In this document: positions 35,802-58,933 of the stretch, piece by piece
Numbering within the stretch: the stretch's first letter is position 1
Layout: the number at the start of each line of letters is the position of its first letter
NCBI GenBank assembly: GCA_035758565.1
Contig: DASTXL010000001.1
Coordinates: forward strand, 267,242 to 331,241
Direction of reading: 5' to 3'
Length of the DNA stretch: 64,000 nt
Origin: Candidatus Saccharimonadales bacterium
GTDB taxonomy: Bacteria; Patescibacteriota; Saccharimonadia; Saccharimonadales; UBA10212
The notes under the pieces: model-generated
What the model saw: only the letters and a program-made list of their open reading frames with translations
What the model was told of the DNA's origin: nothing
Database searches by the model: none
Program-made: the position numbers and the translations under genes

Positions 35802-36386
35802 ATGAGCGAGATACTCGACAGACCAGCTGGCGGTGAGATGCCGCGCAATCCGTTAGACGGCTTTTCTTTTATAGCCGGAAGCTTTGCTGAACCGTTACCG
35901 GCTCGGGTTAACGACATTAAAAAAGCTAACCCCAGTCATAGAACCCAAACTCCGGAACTAATAATGTACACCTTAGAGTTAGCCGGTCTAATCCCGTCGC
36001 GAGAACAATTGGAGCTTCAGAGGGCGGAATTCTTAGACTTCGAGAACGTTGAAGGTCAGGAGCAAGCCTTAGAAGCCGCCGCTGCGCTGCGGCAGGCCAT
36101 CCAGGAGGCCGCCAACGAGGCTTCTGTGGAGCGCTTAGAAATGCGTCCATCGCAATTTGACGCGATTCGCCAAGCAACCAGCATCTTGACTCCTGCCAAC
36201 ACGCCGGCTCTAAAAATTATTAAAGCTATGGCCACCAAACACAAACACGCCGATAGAGACATTAAGGTTGACGCGCTATTAAATCCTACCGAAGCCGCTT
36301 ACTGCGAAGATGTGTTTAGAATTCTGGCTGCCAGACAATTGCAGACTGAATATTCTGATAGAATAAGCGGGCAATATGGCGTTTGA
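35802..36386 (+). CDS. Hypothetical protein (194 aa)
   Basis: ORF overlaps the cobO-like start by 11 nt, implying coupled translation. No motif recognised. Confidence 0.5.
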   Translation: MSEILDRPAGGEMPRNPLDGFSFIAGSFAEPLPARVNDIKKANPSHRTQTPELIMYTLELAGLIPSREQLELQRAEFLDFENVEGQEQALEAAAALRQAIQEAANEASVERLEMRPSQFDAIRQATSILTPANTPALKIIKAMATKHKHADRDIKVDALLNPTEAAYCEDVFRILAARQLQTEYSDRISGQYGV

Positions 36387-36945
36387 AGACTATAAAACAA
36401 AAGAGTCAGTAATCGTTGTTTACACTGGCGAGGGCAAAGGAAAAACCAGCGCCAGCGTAGGTTTGTTAGCCCGATCCTTGGGCAGCGGCTGGAGGGCTGC
36501 CTACATTCAATTCATTAAGCATTGGAACGTCGGCGAGCACGACTTTATTCACAAAATCGAACCGGTTTTTGGCGATAAACTCTTCTTTTATAAAGGCGGC
36601 AAAGGCTTTTACGATGCCGGAGATTTGAGCGCCAAAAACGTCTCAGAAGAAGAACATAAAAAGGCCGCTCAAAGCACTTACGATATGGCTTACAAACTAG
36701 CCACTAGCGGTGACTATGATATTGTGATTTGCGACGAAATAAACAACGCCGCCCATCATGGCCTAATAACCAAAGACGATTTAAAGAAACTTATTAAAGA
36801 CAAGGCAGAGAAGACCAGCCTGTGCCTAACTGGCCGCGATTTTCCGGAAGAGCTGCTGCCGCTCACCGACATCGCTACTAACATGACCAAAATCAAACAT
36901 CACTTCGACGATAAGTTTCTGGCGAACAAGGGTATTGATTTCTAG
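36376..36945 (+). CDS. cobO: Cob(I)yrinic acid a,c-diamide / cob(I)alamin adenosyltransferase (CobA/CobO/BtuR family)
   Basis: VIVVYTGEGKGKTSASVGLLARSLGSGWRAAYIQFIKHWNVGE matches the P-loop family signature. Confidence 0.8.
   Translation: MAFEDYKTKESVIVVYTGEGKGKTSASVGLLARSLGSGWRAAYIQFIKHWNVGEHDFIHKIEPVFGDKLFFYKGGKGFYDAGDLSAKNVSEEEHKKAAQSTYDMAYKLATSGDYDIVICDEINNAAHHGLITKDDLKKLIKDKAEKTSLCLTGRDFPEELLPLTDIATNMTKIKHHFDDKFLANKGIDF
36893..36944 (+). repeat. Direct repeat copy 1 (last 52 nt of cobO)
   Basis: tcaaacatcacttcgacgataagtttctggcgaacaagggtattgatttcta is identical to 37024-37075. Confidence 0.95.
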
Positions 36946-36994: not shown

Positions 36995-37018
36995 CCCCGC
37001 AAATTTTAATTTGTGGGG
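36995..37018 (+). terminator. Hairpin CCCCGCAAATTTTAATTTGTGGGG (family copy H1), likely the cobO terminator
   Basis: 10-11 bp stem including one G-U pair, followed by ttt. 22/24 identical to the reverse complement of 57297-57320. Confidence 0.55.
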
Positions 37019-37023
37019 TTTAG

Positions 37024-37075
37024 TCAAACATCACTTCGACGATAAGTTTCTGGCGAACAAGGGTATTGATTTCTA
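37024..37075 (+). repeat. Direct repeat copy 2 (orphan copy of the cobO 3' end)
   Basis: 52/52 identical to 36893-36944. The next base makes a TAA stop where copy 1 has TAG. Its end overlaps the stop codon of the convergent ParB-like gene. Confidence 0.95.
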
Positions 37076-38314
37076 ACCTAGGGCTAGCTGATCTGGATGC
37101 ACTTCCAGAGTTTCATCAATCTCTCGCCTACCCAAGCTATCTATAGCATCAAGAAGACCAAGCTCTGTTGCTCTTTGAGCGACCCTTCTAATCCTCTCTA
37201 AATCCCGCCCCTCAATTGGTAAATGCGCGCCAACTTCTACTAATGATTTAGACAATAGAAGACCTTCGACTGCCCCTCGAGCTATTGTTGTTTGCCGTTT
37301 TTTAGCGCTCTGATGCCATCTTTCCACTTGTCTTTCAATAGCATTTTGAGTTTGCGTATAGATTTCGAGTTGATTTGTGTTTCTCAGATTGTCCGCCTGT
37401 CCTAAAATACGCTTTCGGGCTTGGTCAGAAGACATTTTTTCTGATTTAGGCAGCGCAGGATTCATCTTAGAAGCAATGTTAATGGCAGCAGATTTAACCC
37501 TATCGTCGGCATCAAGTGTAGCGAGCTCTAGTAGATCCAGGTAATTCTCTGCGCTAACCTCACCACCCTCTGCCTCGGCAGAACGTTGAGCAATAAAATA
37601 ATCAATAGCGGCTCTGTGTAACTTAGTAAGCTCGGTGGCCAAATTGTAAGATAACCTACCGTCGTCTACCAATTTGTGCACGACTTCAGGCAGGGCAAAG
37701 TAGCGAAGAGCTTCGCGAGTAGCATCTTGACCTAGAGGGGAGTCAGGCAAAAAATCTGCAATCGAGTTATAGCGCCCCTCTTTGCAGCCTACAAAGTACA
37801 TTTCTCGGACGGCTTTAGCATATTGAATTGCCGGTGGCCTGTCATGAAAGTTCTCGCTGATTTGTAAACGCATGATTTCCTCAGGCGACAAACAGGGAAA
37901 GACTCTAGCGTGGATTAAAGTCTGCTCGCGCGAATAACCGTTTTCTTTTGCAATTTGCAAATAGGCGCGGTCACGCCGGTGCCCGGCCGCCAAAATCAAC
38001 ACAGTGCCATCGGGTTGTATTTTATTTTCGGGTACCTGCACATTTTTGCCCCAGCATTCGTTGGTGTAAGAAACGTAGCGCCTGGCCACATCAAGTGGTG
38101 TCTGAGCCAAAAAAATAGATGTGTGCATCTCGTTGTGGGACTTAATATCATGCACGAGCTCTTGATGTTTTTCGCTATCATGAGCGGCGCGCATCTGGCC
38201 GGCGATAATATAAGAGTCCATTGGCACCTGAACAATTACTGGAGTTTCGCCTATCTGAAAATACTCCGGCCGTTGATTTTCTTTGCTTTGCAAGGTCTCA
38301 TCAACCGCCGACAT
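37073..38314 (-). CDS. ParB/Srx-fold N-terminal domain protein with ParB-like HTH (413 aa)
   Basis: LILAAGHRRDRAYLQ resembles the ParB arginine patch GERRxRA. Downstream is the HTH-like LSYNLATELTKL, then a coiled C-terminal region. Confidence 0.65.
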   Translation of the reverse strand: MSAVDETLQSKENQRPEYFQIGETPVIVQVPMDSYIIAGQMRAAHDSEKHQELVHDIKSHNEMHTSIFLAQTPLDVARRYVSYTNECWGKNVQVPENKIQPDGTVLILAAGHRRDRAYLQIAKENGYSREQTLIHARVFPCLSPEEIMRLQISENFHDRPPAIQYAKAVREMYFVGCKEGRYNSIADFLPDSPLGQDATREALRYFALPEVVHKLVDDGRLSYNLATELTKLHRAAIDYFIAQRSAEAEGGEVSAENYLDLLELATLDADDRVKSAAINIASKMNPALPKSEKMSSDQARKRILGQADNLRNTNQLEIYTQTQNAIERQVERWHQSAKKRQTTIARGAVEGLLLSKSLVEVGAHLPIEGRDLERIRRVAQRATELGLLDAIDSLGRREIDETLEVHPDQLALG

Positions 38315-55076: not shown

Positions 55077-56825
55077 ATGCGTAAGGAAGAGTTGCCGCGT
55101 GGGAGCGAGCAAGCGCTTAAAGTTGACTTAGATTGGCGCGAGCCATTTGAATGGCGTGAACCAGCTCACTGGCAAGAAGGCCTTGGGAACATTAAGGCAT
55201 TGGCCCACAGCATGCTCGCAGACGCCCGCATCCATGCAGCTAAAATGCTAATCAGGAACCGTGAGCGGGCCCAAGAACTTTATCACTGGCACGACGGGCT
55301 GCACACGCCGCCAGCCGCCGAACACTACCGCCATACTTATCTATGGGATTCCGGTTTTTGCCAGATCATGCTGGCGCAAGCCGCCGAACTGGCTTATAAA
55401 TCAGCAGTTCACCTAGAAACCCGTCTGAATAGCGCTCCACTAGAAGACCGGCTAGAAATTGTTTCAGCAATAAAACAACTGAAAGACCTTGCCGAAACTT
55501 TCCAGAGGGCCAGTGTTACAGAGGGCTTCTCGGTTATTAAAGGCCAAAAAGCAAACGGTTTCATACCCAACCTACAGTATGGCGAGGGAACTCTCTGGTA
55601 TGAAGTTGAGCAGTTTGTATCTCTCGACAAAGTCAACAAAAGCAGCAATTATACTCAGCCGCCTGTTTTGCCGCTGGCAACTTACGCGACTTATAAGTCA
55701 ATGGTCGAGACCAACAACCCCAATGCCAAGCTTTATCTAGAAGAAATGTACGGTTCTATGGATAAATTTATGCGCTACTTCCACGACTACCGCAGCAACA
55801 GCCTGGCCGATAAGAAAATAGGTGTGATTGAACCGCACGAAACCGGCTTGGACTCATTAGAACAATGGGATTACATCAAACCTCACCGAGTAGAGCGCAA
55901 CGGCGTCGACACGCCTCAAGAAGTTGACGATCGCAACCGCTTTGCCGACGGCGGTCACTTTGTAGTCCGGCTATTCGAACGCTACCTTGTGGCTGGCGGC
56001 GATCTTGCCAAACAGCGCCAGCTTTTCTGGTGTAACGACGTATTAATAAACAGCATTTATTTCCATAACCTGCAAGTTATGGCCAAGCTGGCAGCCGAGC
56101 TCGGCAAACAAGATGATTTGGAGTTTTATGAGAATTTAGCAAACACCGTTGAGCAACAGATGATAGATGATATGTGGCAAGACGATCCAGATAAAGTACC
56201 GATGCCGGGCTTTTACTCGCTAAAGGACAATGGCGAGCCAATTGAGACCATAACGGTTAGTAATTTAATGGCTCTAACTTTGCCCCACCTGCCCGAAGAA
56301 AAATTAAAAGCCGTTCTTAATATGATGGATGAGCACTTTAATGTGCCTTATCCGTTGCCTAGCGGCTCAATCAAGAGTCCGAACTACGACCCCAACAACC
56401 AAGAAAAGGATCGCTTGTGGCGCGGACCGACGTGGCTCAATACCAATTGGTATATAGCCGAACACGGCTTGTTTATGCAGGCTGCCCGGCAAGACATCAG
56501 CCCCAAGCTGCGTCTGCGCTGCAAAGCCTGGGCCAACCGCCTCACCCAGGCCTCCAACGAGCTCCTGGACATGAACGAACCCGAAAGGCGACGAGCACAA
56601 AGTATGGGCGCTAAAGTTATCGACATCTTCACCAAAATAGAATTAGAAGCCCATCATCTAAAAGAGTTCCGGACTGGCGCTTACGAACACTACAACCCGC
56701 ACACCGGCGAAGGCCAGCGCGATAAGGTGCGTAACTTTGCCTGGAGCTGGCTAGCTAGATTTATGACCCTAGACGAAGATTACAGCCAGCTAATTCGAGA
56801 AATCGAGCTATCTCTTTCAGCGTAG
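55077..56825 (+). CDS. (alpha/alpha)6-barrel glycoside hydrolase (GH63/GH37-like; glucosidase / mannosylglycerate-hydrolase-like)
   Basis: YLWDSGF, EPHETGLDS and DRLWRGPTWLNTNWYIAEHG are typical of the GH63-like clan. Confidence 0.55.
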   Translation: MRKEELPRGSEQALKVDLDWREPFEWREPAHWQEGLGNIKALAHSMLADARIHAAKMLIRNRERAQELYHWHDGLHTPPAAEHYRHTYLWDSGFCQIMLAQAAELAYKSAVHLETRLNSAPLEDRLEIVSAIKQLKDLAETFQRASVTEGFSVIKGQKANGFIPNLQYGEGTLWYEVEQFVSLDKVNKSSNYTQPPVLPLATYATYKSMVETNNPNAKLYLEEMYGSMDKFMRYFHDYRSNSLADKKIGVIEPHETGLDSLEQWDYIKPHRVERNGVDTPQEVDDRNRFADGGHFVVRLFERYLVAGGDLAKQRQLFWCNDVLINSIYFHNLQVMAKLAAELGKQDDLEFYENLANTVEQQMIDDMWQDDPDKVPMPGFYSLKDNGEPIETITVSNLMALTLPHLPEEKLKAVLNMMDEHFNVPYPLPSGSIKSPNYDPNNQEKDRLWRGPTWLNTNWYIAEHGLFMQAARQDISPKLRLRCKAWANRLTQASNELLDMNEPERRRAQSMGAKVIDIFTKIELEAHHLKEFRTGAYEHYNPHTGEGQRDKVRNFAWSWLARFMTLDEDYSQLIREIELSLSA

Positions 56826-57243
56826 TTCTAGCGAAATATTACCCGCAAAAATCAATATTGCCCGTGCTTAAATGCTTGGTCTAAAATAAAATTAGCCGTG
56901 TGAGGACTCGGTAAACGTTTCTCCTCGCAGACTTATTTTCAAACTCCAGGGTAGCATCACAACCTAGTCACTGCTAACCTCAATACATTTGCTAAGCTTC
57001 CTAGCTAAACGGGGCAGGTATCAGAACGGTTACCGACCCTTAGACGCTTCAAGGCAGCCGACTCTTATAAAGGCCGTTCGCCACATCTCGACTACAGATG
57101 AATGGCACTCTTTTTATAAACCTTAAAAACCTAATTTTCACCACTCGAGAAAACAGAGCGAGAGAGCACGAGTAAAAGTGGAATCGAGGACTTGTCTGAC
57201 GAACAATAGTGAGGAGTCCCGCAGATTCACTTTTAATGAGTGA

Positions 57244-57281
57244 TCGAATGAGCATCCAGTTTTCGAATGTGCTGAGAGTTT
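57244..57281 (+). repeat. Tandem 19-nt direct repeat x2
   Basis: tcgaatgagcatccagttt (57244-57262) and tcgaatgtgctgagagttt (57263-57281), 14/19 identical and directly abutting. Confidence 0.8.
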
Positions 57282-57296
57282 GGCGCCACCAGTGCA

Positions 57297-57320
57297 CCCC
57301 ACAAAGTAAACTTTGCGGGG
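57297..57320 (-). repeat. Hairpin family copy H2 (minus strand reads CCCCGCAAAGTTTACTTTGTGGGG)
   Basis: 22/24 identical to H1 (36995-37018). The two differences fall on paired positions (T-A becomes G-C). Not followed by a T-run on either strand. Confidence 0.8.
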
Positions 57321-57387
57321 AACCCCCGGGTTGTCGGCACAAGGTGGCAAAATCAGCCGCCTAGGCTGCCAAGAAAGGAATTCAACT

Positions 57388-57699
57388 ATGGAAAACGTAA
57401 ATCTAATCAACCAAGACGTATCGATCGTAGCCTACTACTTTCATAACCGCGGACGCCGTTTGCGCTGCTACCCAAAGGCTATGGAATGGAATGGCCGAAG
57501 AGTCAACTTCACCGAAACCGGCATGGTACACCCCACTAAGAAAGGTCAGCGCACCTTGCACATCTTTGACATGACCGACGGCAGTGCCGACTACCGCTTG
57601 GAGTTCGACGCTCAACAGCTTACCTGGACGCTGGTTTCAATCGCCGATATTAGCGAACAACAAGATGCCACATTCCTCACACCTAGCCTTGCCGCTTAA
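57388..57699 (+). CDS. Small hypothetical protein (103 aa) immediately upstream of the Y-family polymerase
   Basis: SD aagaaagga upstream. MENVNLINQDVSIVAYYFHNRGRRLRCYPKAMEWNGRRVNF...YRLEFDAQQLTWTLVSI. Beta-rich, with no S24 peptidase motif visible. Confidence 0.6.
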   Translation: MENVNLINQDVSIVAYYFHNRGRRLRCYPKAMEWNGRRVNFTETGMVHPTKKGQRTLHIFDMTDGSADYRLEFDAQQLTWTLVSIADISEQQDATFLTPSLAA

Positions 57700-57718
57700 C
57701 CCAGCTAAACCGCTGGTT

Positions 57719-58933
57719 ATGCACATAGACTTGAATAGTTGCTTCGCTACTGTCGAGCAGCAGGCTAGGCCACTGCTTCGCGGCCGGCCAGTTGGCGTCG
57801 CCAACCGCAATACCGAATACACCTGCGTGGTAGCTTGCAGCTACGAGGCTAAGGCGCTGGGCGTAAAGGTCGGCATGAGCTTCCACGACGCTAAATTGCT
57901 GGCGCCGGATATTGTACTAGTAGAATCCGACCCGCCCAAGTACCACTACGTTTATCAGATCTTGGTCGATATCATGAGAAGCTACTCGCCATTTGTCACT
58001 ATGAAATCGATAGACGAAGGTATCGTAGATTTTGAAGGCACCGAACTTGTAAACAAAGGGTCTCTGGAGGACATTGGCTACGAAATCAAACAACGCTTAA
58101 AGGACGAAATTGGCTGCTGGATGAAATGTAATATTGGCATTGCCCCCAACCGGTTTTTGGCTAAAACCGCCGCCGGTCTTAATAAGCCAGACGGCCTGGA
58201 TATTATTACCGCGAGAAATTTGCGCCAGATTTTTACTGGCCTTAAACTAACCGACCTGACCGGCATCGCCGAGCGCAACCAAGCTCGCCTAAACAGCGCT
58301 GGCATTTATACGCCGCTAGAGTTTTTAGACGCCCCGGCTGACCTACTCCGCCGCCGGGTGTTTAAAAGTGTTTGCGGCGAAGATTGGTATAAACGCCTGC
58401 GCGGCTGGGAAGTTGACGACGTAGAACACGGTTTAAAAACGGTTGGCCGGCAATTTGTGATGGACGAAATGCGTCCCAGCGCCGATACCGTGCGGACGCG
58501 CCTGGCCTACCTCTGCGAAACCACAGCTATGAAGTTACGTTATAAGGGAGTCTGTGCGCGCGGCATCTTCGTTTACGTACGTTACGCTAACGGCGACTAT
58601 TGGTATGACCGGCGGATGTTCAAAAGCGCTTTTTACACCAACCAAGAAGTGCTGCGCCGAGCATTACTACTCTTTAATAACCGGCCGCATGAGGCCTATG
58701 AGCGCGAAATCGGCGTGACTTGCTACGGACTAGAGCCGTCAAATATTAACCAAATTAGTCTGCTAGAGGAGGTTAACAAAGAAGCCTGGCTGACTGAGGC
58801 TATAGACACGATTAACGGTCAGTTTGGCGAATTCACCATAACTTTTGCTACGTCTTTGGGCGCCAAAGCTACCGTCAAACAAAAAATTCCGTTCGGTACC
58901 ACACGCTACTTTGAACTACTCTGCAACGCCTAG
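57719..58933 (+). CDS. Y-family DNA polymerase, UmuC-like
   Basis: MHIDLNSCFATVEQ, VGVANRNTEYTCVVACSYEAKALGVKVGM and SIDEG. An alternative in-frame ATG at 57665 would overlap the small ORF by 35 nt. Confidence 0.85.
   Translation: MHIDLNSCFATVEQQARPLLRGRPVGVANRNTEYTCVVACSYEAKALGVKVGMSFHDAKLLAPDIVLVESDPPKYHYVYQILVDIMRSYSPFVTMKSIDEGIVDFEGTELVNKGSLEDIGYEIKQRLKDEIGCWMKCNIGIAPNRFLAKTAAGLNKPDGLDIITARNLRQIFTGLKLTDLTGIAERNQARLNSAGIYTPLEFLDAPADLLRRRVFKSVCGEDWYKRLRGWEVDDVEHGLKTVGRQFVMDEMRPSADTVRTRLAYLCETTAMKLRYKGVCARGIFVYVRYANGDYWYDRRMFKSAFYTNQEVLRRALLLFNNRPHEAYEREIGVTCYGLEPSNINQISLLEEVNKEAWLTEAIDTINGQFGEFTITFATSLGAKATVKQKIPFGTTRYFELLCNA

Follow-up and report, generated by a model that had tools for sequence, protein, structure and literature searches.

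A conserved pseudoknotted RNA upstream of translesion-polymerase operons in Saccharibacteria is a probable cis-acting leader

We analyzed a 64,000-nt stretch of DNA from a Candidatus Saccharimonadales bacterium (the window; coordinates are positions in it, and L-numbers denote comparative loci), in which a gap of 562 bp (56826-57387) separates the end of an MGH1-like glycoside hydrolase open reading frame (ORF) at 56825 from the ATG at 57388 of an operon encoding a small protein and a Y-family DNA polymerase. The gap consists of two parts: 56858-57125 holds a promoter and a structured RNA, and 57126-57387 is a lineage-specific insertion. The segment 56892-57125 is almost certainly a genuine structured RNA, conserved across many relatives from soil. 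In our judgment the first 300 bp of the gap are probably the promoter and 5′ leader of the operon, with the RNA working in cis as an attenuator or riboswitch-like element. Table 1 lists the features.

A search with the polymerase as query returned 80 loci from metagenome-assembled genomes (MAGs) of Candidatus Saccharibacteria and Saccharimonadales (52-77% identity), which together with the window make 81 window-plus-genome sources. The upstream neighbor is not conserved: the glycoside hydrolase recurs only in L012 among the 80 genome loci and in L201-L203. Despite this change of neighbor, a gap of 150-700 nt is kept before the small ORF in most loci. Direct blastn of the gap against relatives gave weak patches only; iterative nhmmer on the upstream regions revealed a shared block of ∼230 nt, which spans 56876-57124 in the window and does not adjoin the ORF.

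A covariance model of this block (R1; 19 sequences, seeded from a MAFFT alignment and per-segment folds) matches 31 of the 81 sources, with a single copy in each that lies without exception on the operon strand and just ahead of the small ORF. Its match in the window (56892-57125) scores 135.5 bits (E = 7e-33). Metagenome contigs were scanned with a pattern taken from the P1 region of the RNA alone (AGCCNTRYRNGGGCTN{9,26}TTCCTCCNYRYAGRC), which yielded at least 120 loci, most of them in JGI environmental metagenome assemblies; R1 has exactly one match in each of the 118 pattern-scan loci searched, about 10 of them cut by a contig end. Across the resulting 151 RNA instances (31 from genomes and the window, 120 from the metagenome loci listed, itself a lower bound), strand and order are invariant, all R1 matches lying on the operon strand.

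Base-pair covariation is extensive. In an alignment of 100 non-redundant sequences (A5), 85.6% of cells pair, compared with 38–44% in slid controls, in which partners were shifted by 1–3 columns; the 31-sequence alignment to the covariance model gives 84.8%, with slid controls at 38–45% over both sets. In A5, 48 of 55 pairs change on both sides, and the covariation score of 0.494 (controls ≤ 0.122) was reached by 0 of 500 shuffles; over both sets the score is about 0.5, with controls at no more than 0.14. A sequence-only reading of this DNA had called for comparative alignment with relatives, and it is in 56892-57125 that this alignment found covarying structure. The suspicion voiced there, of one or more unannotated non-coding RNAs and/or a complex regulatory leader for a mutagenic polymerase operon, gains support from a covarying, pseudoknotted RNA of ∼233 nt that begins at the claimed promoter and lies on the operon strand, although this RNA was not itself described in that reading.

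Support extends over the whole fold. Among the 100 sequences, P1 is 99.5% paired with compensatory changes in four of its eight pairs, all 10 pairs of helix 6 in P3/P4 are doubly changed, helix 7 is 87% paired, and helices 10 and 11 of P5 show compensatory changes in all seven pairs. The helices of P2 are 68–99% paired, again with compensatory changes, and per-sequence folds agree. For P4, the register of the covariance model is off by 1–2 nt in the window. The pseudoknot is absent from the model and still 89–90% paired, with double changes in five of seven pairs (for example GAGUGG/CCACUU, AGACGG/CCGUCU, and UGGCGG/CCGCCA). A plain MAFFT alignment alone supports P1, the variable P1a, and the long-range GAACGG:CCGUUC pairing, each with compensatory changes, and per-sequence folds show the same architecture everywhere.

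Sequence conservation is concentrated in a few short elements. The 5′ AGCC, the GGGCU and UUCCUCC that flank the P1 internal loop, a cAGAC, and the ACGG/CCGU of the pseudoknot are each ≥ 97% conserved; the two near-invariant motifs of the internal loop read GGACU and UUUCUCC in the window. Because near-invariant G-U pairs, such as P1 column 15-47 (GU in 98 of 100 sequences), would be A-C on the opposite strand, the RNA is assigned to the plus strand. Folding of the whole gap is consistent with this assignment, exceeding that of shuffled sequences on the plus strand only (z = −2.71, versus −0.93 on the minus strand).

A sigma70-type promoter precedes the RNA, exactly at the position where the sequence-only reading had placed TTGCCC and TAAAAT with an 18-nt spacer. 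Taken alone, this match is at chance level (1 found versus 0.9 expected in shuffles), and it is its conserved position in the family that makes it credible. A −10 hexamer with at least five of six matches to TATAAT is present in 126 of 127 non-identical family upstream regions and ends 6-7 nt ahead of the AGCC of the RNA in 109 of 127; a −10 (≥ 4/6) with a −35-like hexamer (≥ 3/6) at 16-19 nt occurs in 115 of 127. This fixed placement argues that the promoter is real and that the RNA begins essentially at the transcription start, predicted at about 56893-56895 in the window. The AAATCAATATTGC motif that overlaps the −35 hexamer may be an UP element or operator. It is the sole exact copy in the window, where one-mismatch copies are at chance level; the form A[AT]TCA-N2-4-TTG is found in 19 of the 127 promoters of the family (15%), compared with a background of 0.4%, and the palindrome CAATATTG at the −35 hexamer is not general across family promoters.

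Could the conservation reflect DNA-level signals, such as a promoter with LexA-like operators, or a decayed gene, rather than RNA structure? The palindrome at the −35 hexamer and the AATCA-N-TTG motif in 15% of promoters would fit such a view, and the GAAC...GUUC of the pseudoknot superficially recalls the SOS boxes of Gram-positive bacteria. However, the doubly changed pairs, some with partners 40-170 nt apart, stay complementary, unlike DNA operators, and the G-U pairs fit one strand only. About 40 nt separate the GAACGG half from the CCGUUC half, and the two covary as RNA pairs. A decayed gene is opposed by the lack of Pfam matches among the ORFs of the gap and by P1 itself, where the AUG found in many members is replaced by GUG-UGA in the window; the latter also means that the element is not a leader peptide. 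We therefore regard an explanation without RNA structure as very improbable.

In other respects the gap conforms in part to what had been claimed of it. Its size and borders as a 562-bp non-coding region are borne out, and it is the largest gap between ORFs of ≥ 90 aa in the 44-64 kb part of the window, with no other coming close. A pseudogene or hidden ORF was rejected, Pfam being negative on the four inner ORFs (45 and 51 aa on the plus strand, 97 and 90 aa on the minus strand); DNA absent from close relatives holds most or all of the 51-aa ORF and of the two on the minus strand. The Rfam scan that had been proposed identified no family: none of the 4227 covariance models of Rfam 15 reached its gathering threshold in the gap, and at E ≤ 10 there were just two eukaryotic long non-coding RNA models at 11–12 bits. 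ARAGORN found a tRNA-Leu and a tRNA-Glu elsewhere in the window and none in the gap. No Rfam family, tRNA, tmRNA, or T-box model fits the gap RNA. Rfam searches with the element from seven variant-1 and seven variant-2 relatives (variant 1 being the RNA described here, variant 2 a second leader introduced below) gave no match at E ≤ 1 either, and no prior description was found in the literature on RNAs of Saccharibacteria, Patescibacteria, or TM7 tied to polymerases, umuC, riboswitches, or DUF6504.

Gene association points to the operon as the target of the RNA. The first downstream gene could be assigned in 121 of the 151 instances listed and is a small-ORF homolog in 116 and umuD in five, all on the same strand. 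Among the 81 instances with at least 2.3 kb downstream, the small ORF is followed by a Pol IV-like Y-family polymerase in 62 and by a UmuD-like S24 peptidase and UmuC (IMS + DUF4113) in 12; UmuD and UmuC follow directly in one, plus four on short contigs, and the small ORF precedes unannotated or unrelated genes in six. The RNA thus stays with translesion-polymerase operons while the upstream neighbor and the polymerase type change, which is the signature of a cis-acting 5′ leader. Promoter, RNA, and first ORF follow one another on one strand, placing a conserved structured domain in the 5′ untranslated region (UTR) of the genes, as in riboswitches. With a median of 43 nt between the end of P5 and the start codon, another promoter would usually not fit. 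Action of the RNA in cis on the operon is, in our assessment, likely.

The same features were weighed for a stand-alone small RNA gene with its own promoter and terminator, either trans-acting or protein-partnering, which would lie next to the polymerase operon by chance or work with the small protein or the polymerase. Such a gene would account for the well-placed promoter, the 3′ end that resembles a terminator in some two thirds of members and is canonical in L157, and the 100-650 nt that separate the RNA from the first ORF in the window, L201, and roughly 10% of members, and the complex conserved core is compatible with a ribonucleoprotein. In most members, however, the ∼43 nt between P5 and the start codon hold no second promoter, so that the operon would be left with the promoter of the RNA alone, and strand and order are invariant in 151 loci despite the change from PolY to umuDC. 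In addition, the variant-2 leader physically includes the Shine-Dalgarno (SD) sequence in a covarying helix. A stand-alone small RNA gene is therefore improbable, and we return to the cis-acting leader.

Variant 2 replaces the RNA in more distant Saccharibacteria. The loci L031-L080, including those labeled Microsaccharimonas or Saccharimonas, have no R1 match except L038, and most carry a different conserved leader of ∼150 nt at the same place, ∼150-190 nt upstream of the small ORF. In this leader, 94.5% of cells pair versus ≤ 45% in slid controls, and a hairpin-loop pseudoknot, GAAACG:CGUUUC, is 98% paired. Next to it, UUCUCUAA pairs with the SD itself, UUAGAGGA (88% paired, four pairs doubly changed). 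Pseudoknot and SD helix share 3 nt, and this overlap is the classical arrangement of a translational switch. The two variants were rejected as a single RNA family: R1 run with filters off on the L045 leader gave no plus-strand match above noise. Their likeness is architectural only: both have CCUC in P1, a pseudoknot of the form GAA(A)CGG:CCGUU(U)C, and CUCU at the tail. By analogy, variant 2 supports the cis-regulatory reading.

We propose the following mechanism. Transcription would start ∼6-7 nt after the TAAAAT box, at (U)AGCC, and the first ∼233 nt would fold into P1 with its GGGCU/UUCCUCC core, then P2, and then P3 enclosing P4, whose loop GAACGGU would pair with GCCGUUC as a pseudoknot. 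The 3′ strand of this pseudoknot would abut P5, a modest hairpin followed by CUCUUUUUAUAA. The folded domain would bind an effector, either a small molecule or a protein, which would thereby control the frequency of termination at P5. Weak pairing of a conserved CUCUUUU tract with the AAGGAG of the SD is a frequent prediction, and in most relatives effector binding would also set the occlusion of the nearby SD by this tract; either route would gate expression of the translesion-polymerase genes. With the self-complementary insertion of ∼260 nt that stands between leader and SD in the window and its closest relative, termination control could still work there, and occlusion of the SD by the CUCU tract probably could not. 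A small molecule as the effector is possible but less likely than not.

Several observations weigh against this reading of variant 1. P5 is weak (median hairpin energy −6.7 kcal/mol), and the run of at least four T that follows it in 67 of 100 members is missing in the remaining third. A simple terminator scan calls P5 a canonical terminator in member L157 and makes no call in the window, whose P5 stem (57080-57106) is interrupted by internal loops before ACUCUUUUU. In variant 1 no conserved anti-terminator alternative to P5 was found, and because the pseudoknot strand abuts the P5 stem and does not overlap it, a switching mechanism in variant 1 is conjectural. Pairing of the CUCU tract with the SD amounts to just −2 to −6 kcal/mol across long loops, pyrimidine tracts generally tend to pair with SD sequences, and the SD in the window sits 262 nt downstream of the RNA. 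Carrying the mechanism of variant 2 over to variant 1 is an analogy, since homology is not detectable by the covariance model. Finally, the transcription start, termination, and read-through, like the effector and the direction of regulation, are predictions from sequence, whereas the fold and its conservation, the strand, the position of the promoter, and the link to these genes are observed.

Table 1. Features of the gap, the operon, and the variant-2 example (window coordinates unless a locus is named)
Feature	Position	Strand	Remarks
AAATCAATATTGC motif with palindrome CAATATTG	56849..56861	+	Overlaps −35 hexamer; candidate UP element or operator
Sigma70-type promoter	56858..56887	+	−35 TTGCCC 56858-63, 18-nt spacer, −10 TAAAAT 56882-87; pattern scan
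Conserved structured leader RNA, variant 1 (∼233 nt)	56892..57125	+	Covariance model R1, nhmmer
P1	UGUGAGGA 56899-906 / UCCUCGCA 56922-929	+	Encloses tiny P1a hairpin and internal loop
P2 hairpin	56948..56980	+	AGGGUAGCA / UGCUAACCU, one G-A mismatch; conserved loop GUCaCUGC
P3	GCUUCCU 56996-57002 / AGGCAGC 57052-57058	+	Encloses P4
P4	GGG..GGUA 57011-57020 / UACC..CCC 57031-57039	+	Pairs read directly from window sequence
Pseudoknot 5′ strand GAACGGU	57024..57030	+	P4 hairpin loop; pairs with 57073-57079
Pseudoknot 3′ strand GCCGUUC	57073..57079	+	Directly abuts P5
P5 terminator-like hairpin	57080..57106, region to 57125	+	GCCA-CAUCU...AGAUG-UGGC, then ACUCUUUUUAUAAACC
3′ tract ACUCUUUUUAUAA	after P5	+	Window sequence
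Lineage-specific insertion	57126..57387	.	Between leader and small ORF
Long imperfect hairpin	about 57131-57287		Within insertion
GCCACC/GGUGGC hairpin	57285-57290 / 57343-57348		Within insertion
H2 hairpin	57297-57320		Within insertion; window-only
Small hairpin CAGCC/GGCUG	57354-57368		Just before SD
SD AAAGGAA and start ATG	57374-57380 and 57388-57390	+	ATGGAAAA start aligns in relatives
Small ORF, 103 aa, first operon gene	57388..57699	+	Family of uncharacterised function
Y-family DNA polymerase	57665..58933 (start 57665 or 57719)	+	Overlaps small-ORF end; Pfam IMS 3.9e-34, IMS_C 3.6e-10
Variant-2 leader example	L045 3440-3593

The insertion that forms the 3′ part of the gap is common to the window and its closest relative, L201, only, at about 73–76% nucleotide identity; the small ORF of L201 is 89% identical and has the same glycoside hydrolase neighbor. 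The ∼40 nt that hold H2 are missing in L201. In L202 and L203 (small ORF 83–86% identical) and in all other loci, the insertion is absent and the U tract of the RNA leads straight to the SD. A repeat or mobile-element origin was rejected, as no further copies exist in the window or in 1.45 Mb of loci, except for an H2-like 24-mer. This near-copy (36995-37018, two mismatches, CCCCACAAAGTAAACTTTGCGGGG) lies between the convergent ORFs 36376-36945 (+) and 37073-38314 (−), and the H2-like element looks like a small recurring terminator-type palindrome.

Is the insertion, instead of being neutral DNA, another functional RNA module, for example an additional attenuator or an element for processing or stability? 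Its sharing with L201 allows a joint fold of −39.3, compared with −14.1 ± 3.6 for column shuffles, with seven compensatory pairs (a number reached by 2% of shuffles) and broken pairs only at gaps, and the hairpin before the SD changes from CAGCC/GGCUG to GCGGC/GCCGC. However, only two sequences are involved, and alifold favors consistent pairs. Folding of the reverse complement is just as good (−34.5, nine compensatory pairs), as expected of a palindromic DNA insertion, so the fold points to neither strand and to no particular function. Neither the relatives with 83–86% identical small ORFs nor about 150 other members have the segment; even L201 lacks H2, and a similar hairpin stands between convergent genes at another place in the window. 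Other lineages, such as L007, L010, L019, and L150, have unrelated insertions at this spot. A functional second module is, on balance, rather unlikely.

Independent, unrelated insertions of 100-650 nt at the junction of leader and ORF were likewise seen in L087, L093, L096, L108, and L176, and in L150, where the RNA lies at 2873, the small ORF follows 850 nt further on. Insertions seem to be tolerated at, or drawn to, the junction behind the U tract.

Most of the signals singled out in the sequence-only reading fall in this part of the gap. The promoter lies in the conserved part, whereas the hairpins near 57190-57220, the tandem repeat, the 'CCA' segment, H2, and the palindrome all lie in the lineage-specific 57126-57387, and they are part of a young sequence that is probably neutral or at best lineage-specific. 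Most exist as described: H2 has 11-nt arms that are 91% complementary, the palindrome before the SD is found at about 57356-57369, and the ggact/agtcc pair is present. Two copies of the 19-nt tandem repeat can also be found, but with 14/19 identity, and neither TRF at score 30 nor a repeat search reports them. The segment tttggcgccacca, said to end at 57288, is actually at 57279-57291, and its GCCACC pairs with GGTGGC at 57343-57348 as the 5′ side of a hairpin. A tRNA-like, tmRNA, or RNase P reading of GGCGCCACCA and GAGGAGUCC was rejected, ARAGORN and Rfam being negative and the segment lying in non-conserved DNA. As for the prospect that the region might lack conservation in related genomes, the 5′ half of the gap is conserved and the 3′ half largely is not.

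The first gene of the operon belongs to a family that accompanies the polymerase closely. Of the 80 genome loci, 79 have a homolog of the small ORF, in most cases immediately before the polymerase (the remaining contig, L047, has just 57 bp ahead of that gene); such a homolog also precedes umuDC in some lineages and occurs as tandem duplicates in L027, L030, and L099. The small ORF has no Pfam or NCBIfam match, and weak matches to DUF6504 appear in seven of 30 diverse members (best E = 0.0036). Its AF2 model is all-beta with a pLDDT of 80, and neither sequence nor fold (AF2 model with Foldseek) matched an entry of the PDB. A word-indexed search returned 427 homologs, and 245 clusters at 50% identity were found among 1.84 billion representatives; all source names shown are 'hypothetical protein', and a profile search gave no annotated relative. 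A YolD-like or UmuD-like accessory was rejected, there being no Pfam YolD-like or Peptidase_S24 match. Judged by sequence, the small ORF is an uncharacterised, lineage-restricted companion of Y-family polymerases.

The polymerase had been called UmuC-like, but it scores best against Pol IV/DinB-type models (best Pol IV model of NCBIfam 185.5 bits, UmuC 84.8 bits, all below curated cut-offs). We rejected UmuC as its identity: DUF4113 reaches just E = 0.097, below the cut-off, and the operon contains no S24 gene. True UmuD and UmuC (DUF4113 5.7e-18) follow the RNA in other loci. The RNA precedes umuD-like (Peptidase_S24) and umuC (IMS + DUF4113) genes in L192, L123, L131, L186, L125, L162, and L085, and a TylF-like methyltransferase ORF lies further downstream of umuDC in L186, L162, and L125. 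The presence of umuDC behind the RNA in metagenome loci indicates that Saccharibacteria carry Pol IV-like and Pol V-like operons behind the same leader.

Other arrangements were seen around the leader and its operon. In L130 (+560..+2062 from the RNA start) and L122 (+638..+2605), the small ORF is followed by proteins of 243-397 aa without Pfam match and by no polymerase, and the next ORF of L094 looks SmpB-like by eye. Such non-polymerase genes after the RNA and small ORF may be further regulon members. A tRNA gene lies at most a few hundred nt upstream of the leader in L003 (3238-3309), L033 (3401-3474), L036 (3033-3106), and L063 (3111-3184), which hints at a recombination-prone or tRNA-linked cassette position. 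In L040, a Microsaccharimonas MAG, a LOOT RNA (RF03000; 6596-6719, 61.8 bits, above gathering) is located downstream of the polymerase operon.

Among known systems, the variant-1 leader resembles the orphan riboswitch candidates and complex-fold cis leader RNAs found by comparative genomics, such as the motifs of Weinberg et al. 2017 (PMC5737381). Like them, it lies in the 5′ UTR on the gene strand, folds into several helices and a covarying pseudoknot around a highly conserved unpaired core, has a putative 3′ module of terminator-like or SD-occluding type, and combines a narrow phylogeny with a consistent gene association. The TM7 motifs in that study concern lysM genes only (lysM-TM7), and none concerns polymerases. 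The leader differs in that it matches no Rfam 15 family and that translesion polymerases are no known riboswitch regulon. The element is a new RNA family with a previously unseen regulon, and it would work in the manner of an attenuator leader or orphan riboswitch.

Translesion polymerases are mutagenic, and in the bacteria studied they are held in check by the LexA/RecA protein circuit. In this SOS control of dinB and umuDC, a protein repressor acts on a DNA operator (review PMC3901139). The targets are the same as here (Y-family polymerases, and UmuD-UmuC in sister lineages), as is the presumed logic of keeping mutagenic polymerases off, whereas the conserved element behind our operons is a transcribed, covarying RNA. 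The 8-oxoguanine riboswitches, variants of the guanine riboswitch with an aptamer followed by an intrinsic terminator (PMC10556655), are the nearest functional precedent and the only RNA we found that senses a product of DNA damage; the main text of that paper contains neither 'translesion' nor 'SOS'. Their purine three-way-junction fold is unrelated to the leader in sequence and architecture, and the Rfam purine model does not match here.

In preQ1-type switches, with aptamers of about 34-80 nt, a hairpin-loop pseudoknot competes with or stacks on an SD-containing helix, a likeness shared by variant 2 only. These switches are far smaller and unrelated, and the variant in the window has a hairpin and a U tract interposed, with no overlap. 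The operon itself has parallels in Firmicutes, where, in the YolD-like/UvrX and YqjX/YqjW operons, a gene of ∼100 aa comes just before a Pol IV-like Y-family gene and overlaps it. Gene size, order, and overlap are alike; in contrast, the small ORF here has no Pfam YolD-like match and also stands upstream of bona fide umuD-umuC. We know of no leader RNA for the Firmicutes operons.

A bolder reading, which we offer as speculation, is that the RNA and the variant-2 leader represent a new riboswitch class that directly senses a small molecule signaling damaged DNA or stressed replication; an altered nucleotide or an alarmone such as a dinucleoside polyphosphate would be examples. Such a class might replace or supplement LexA-type control throughout Saccharibacteria, and the ∼100-aa protein would then be a co-regulated polymerase accessory.

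The leader corrects the annotation of a recurrent 'empty' intergenic region in Saccharibacteria genomes and gives a handle on an uncharacterised small protein family that travels with translesion polymerases. It is a well-defined candidate for an orphan riboswitch or leader, and its more than 100 diverse sequences can be used for ligand screening. It is also a natural regulatory part in a group for which there is an active search for genetic tools, among them riboswitches (PMC11665869). No precedent was found in Rfam or the searchable literature for what these observations point to, namely RNA-based control of mutagenesis and damage tolerance in Saccharibacteria, members of the Candidate Phyla Radiation whose ultrasmall genomes keep an elaborate RNA of ∼230 nt before mutagenic polymerase genes.

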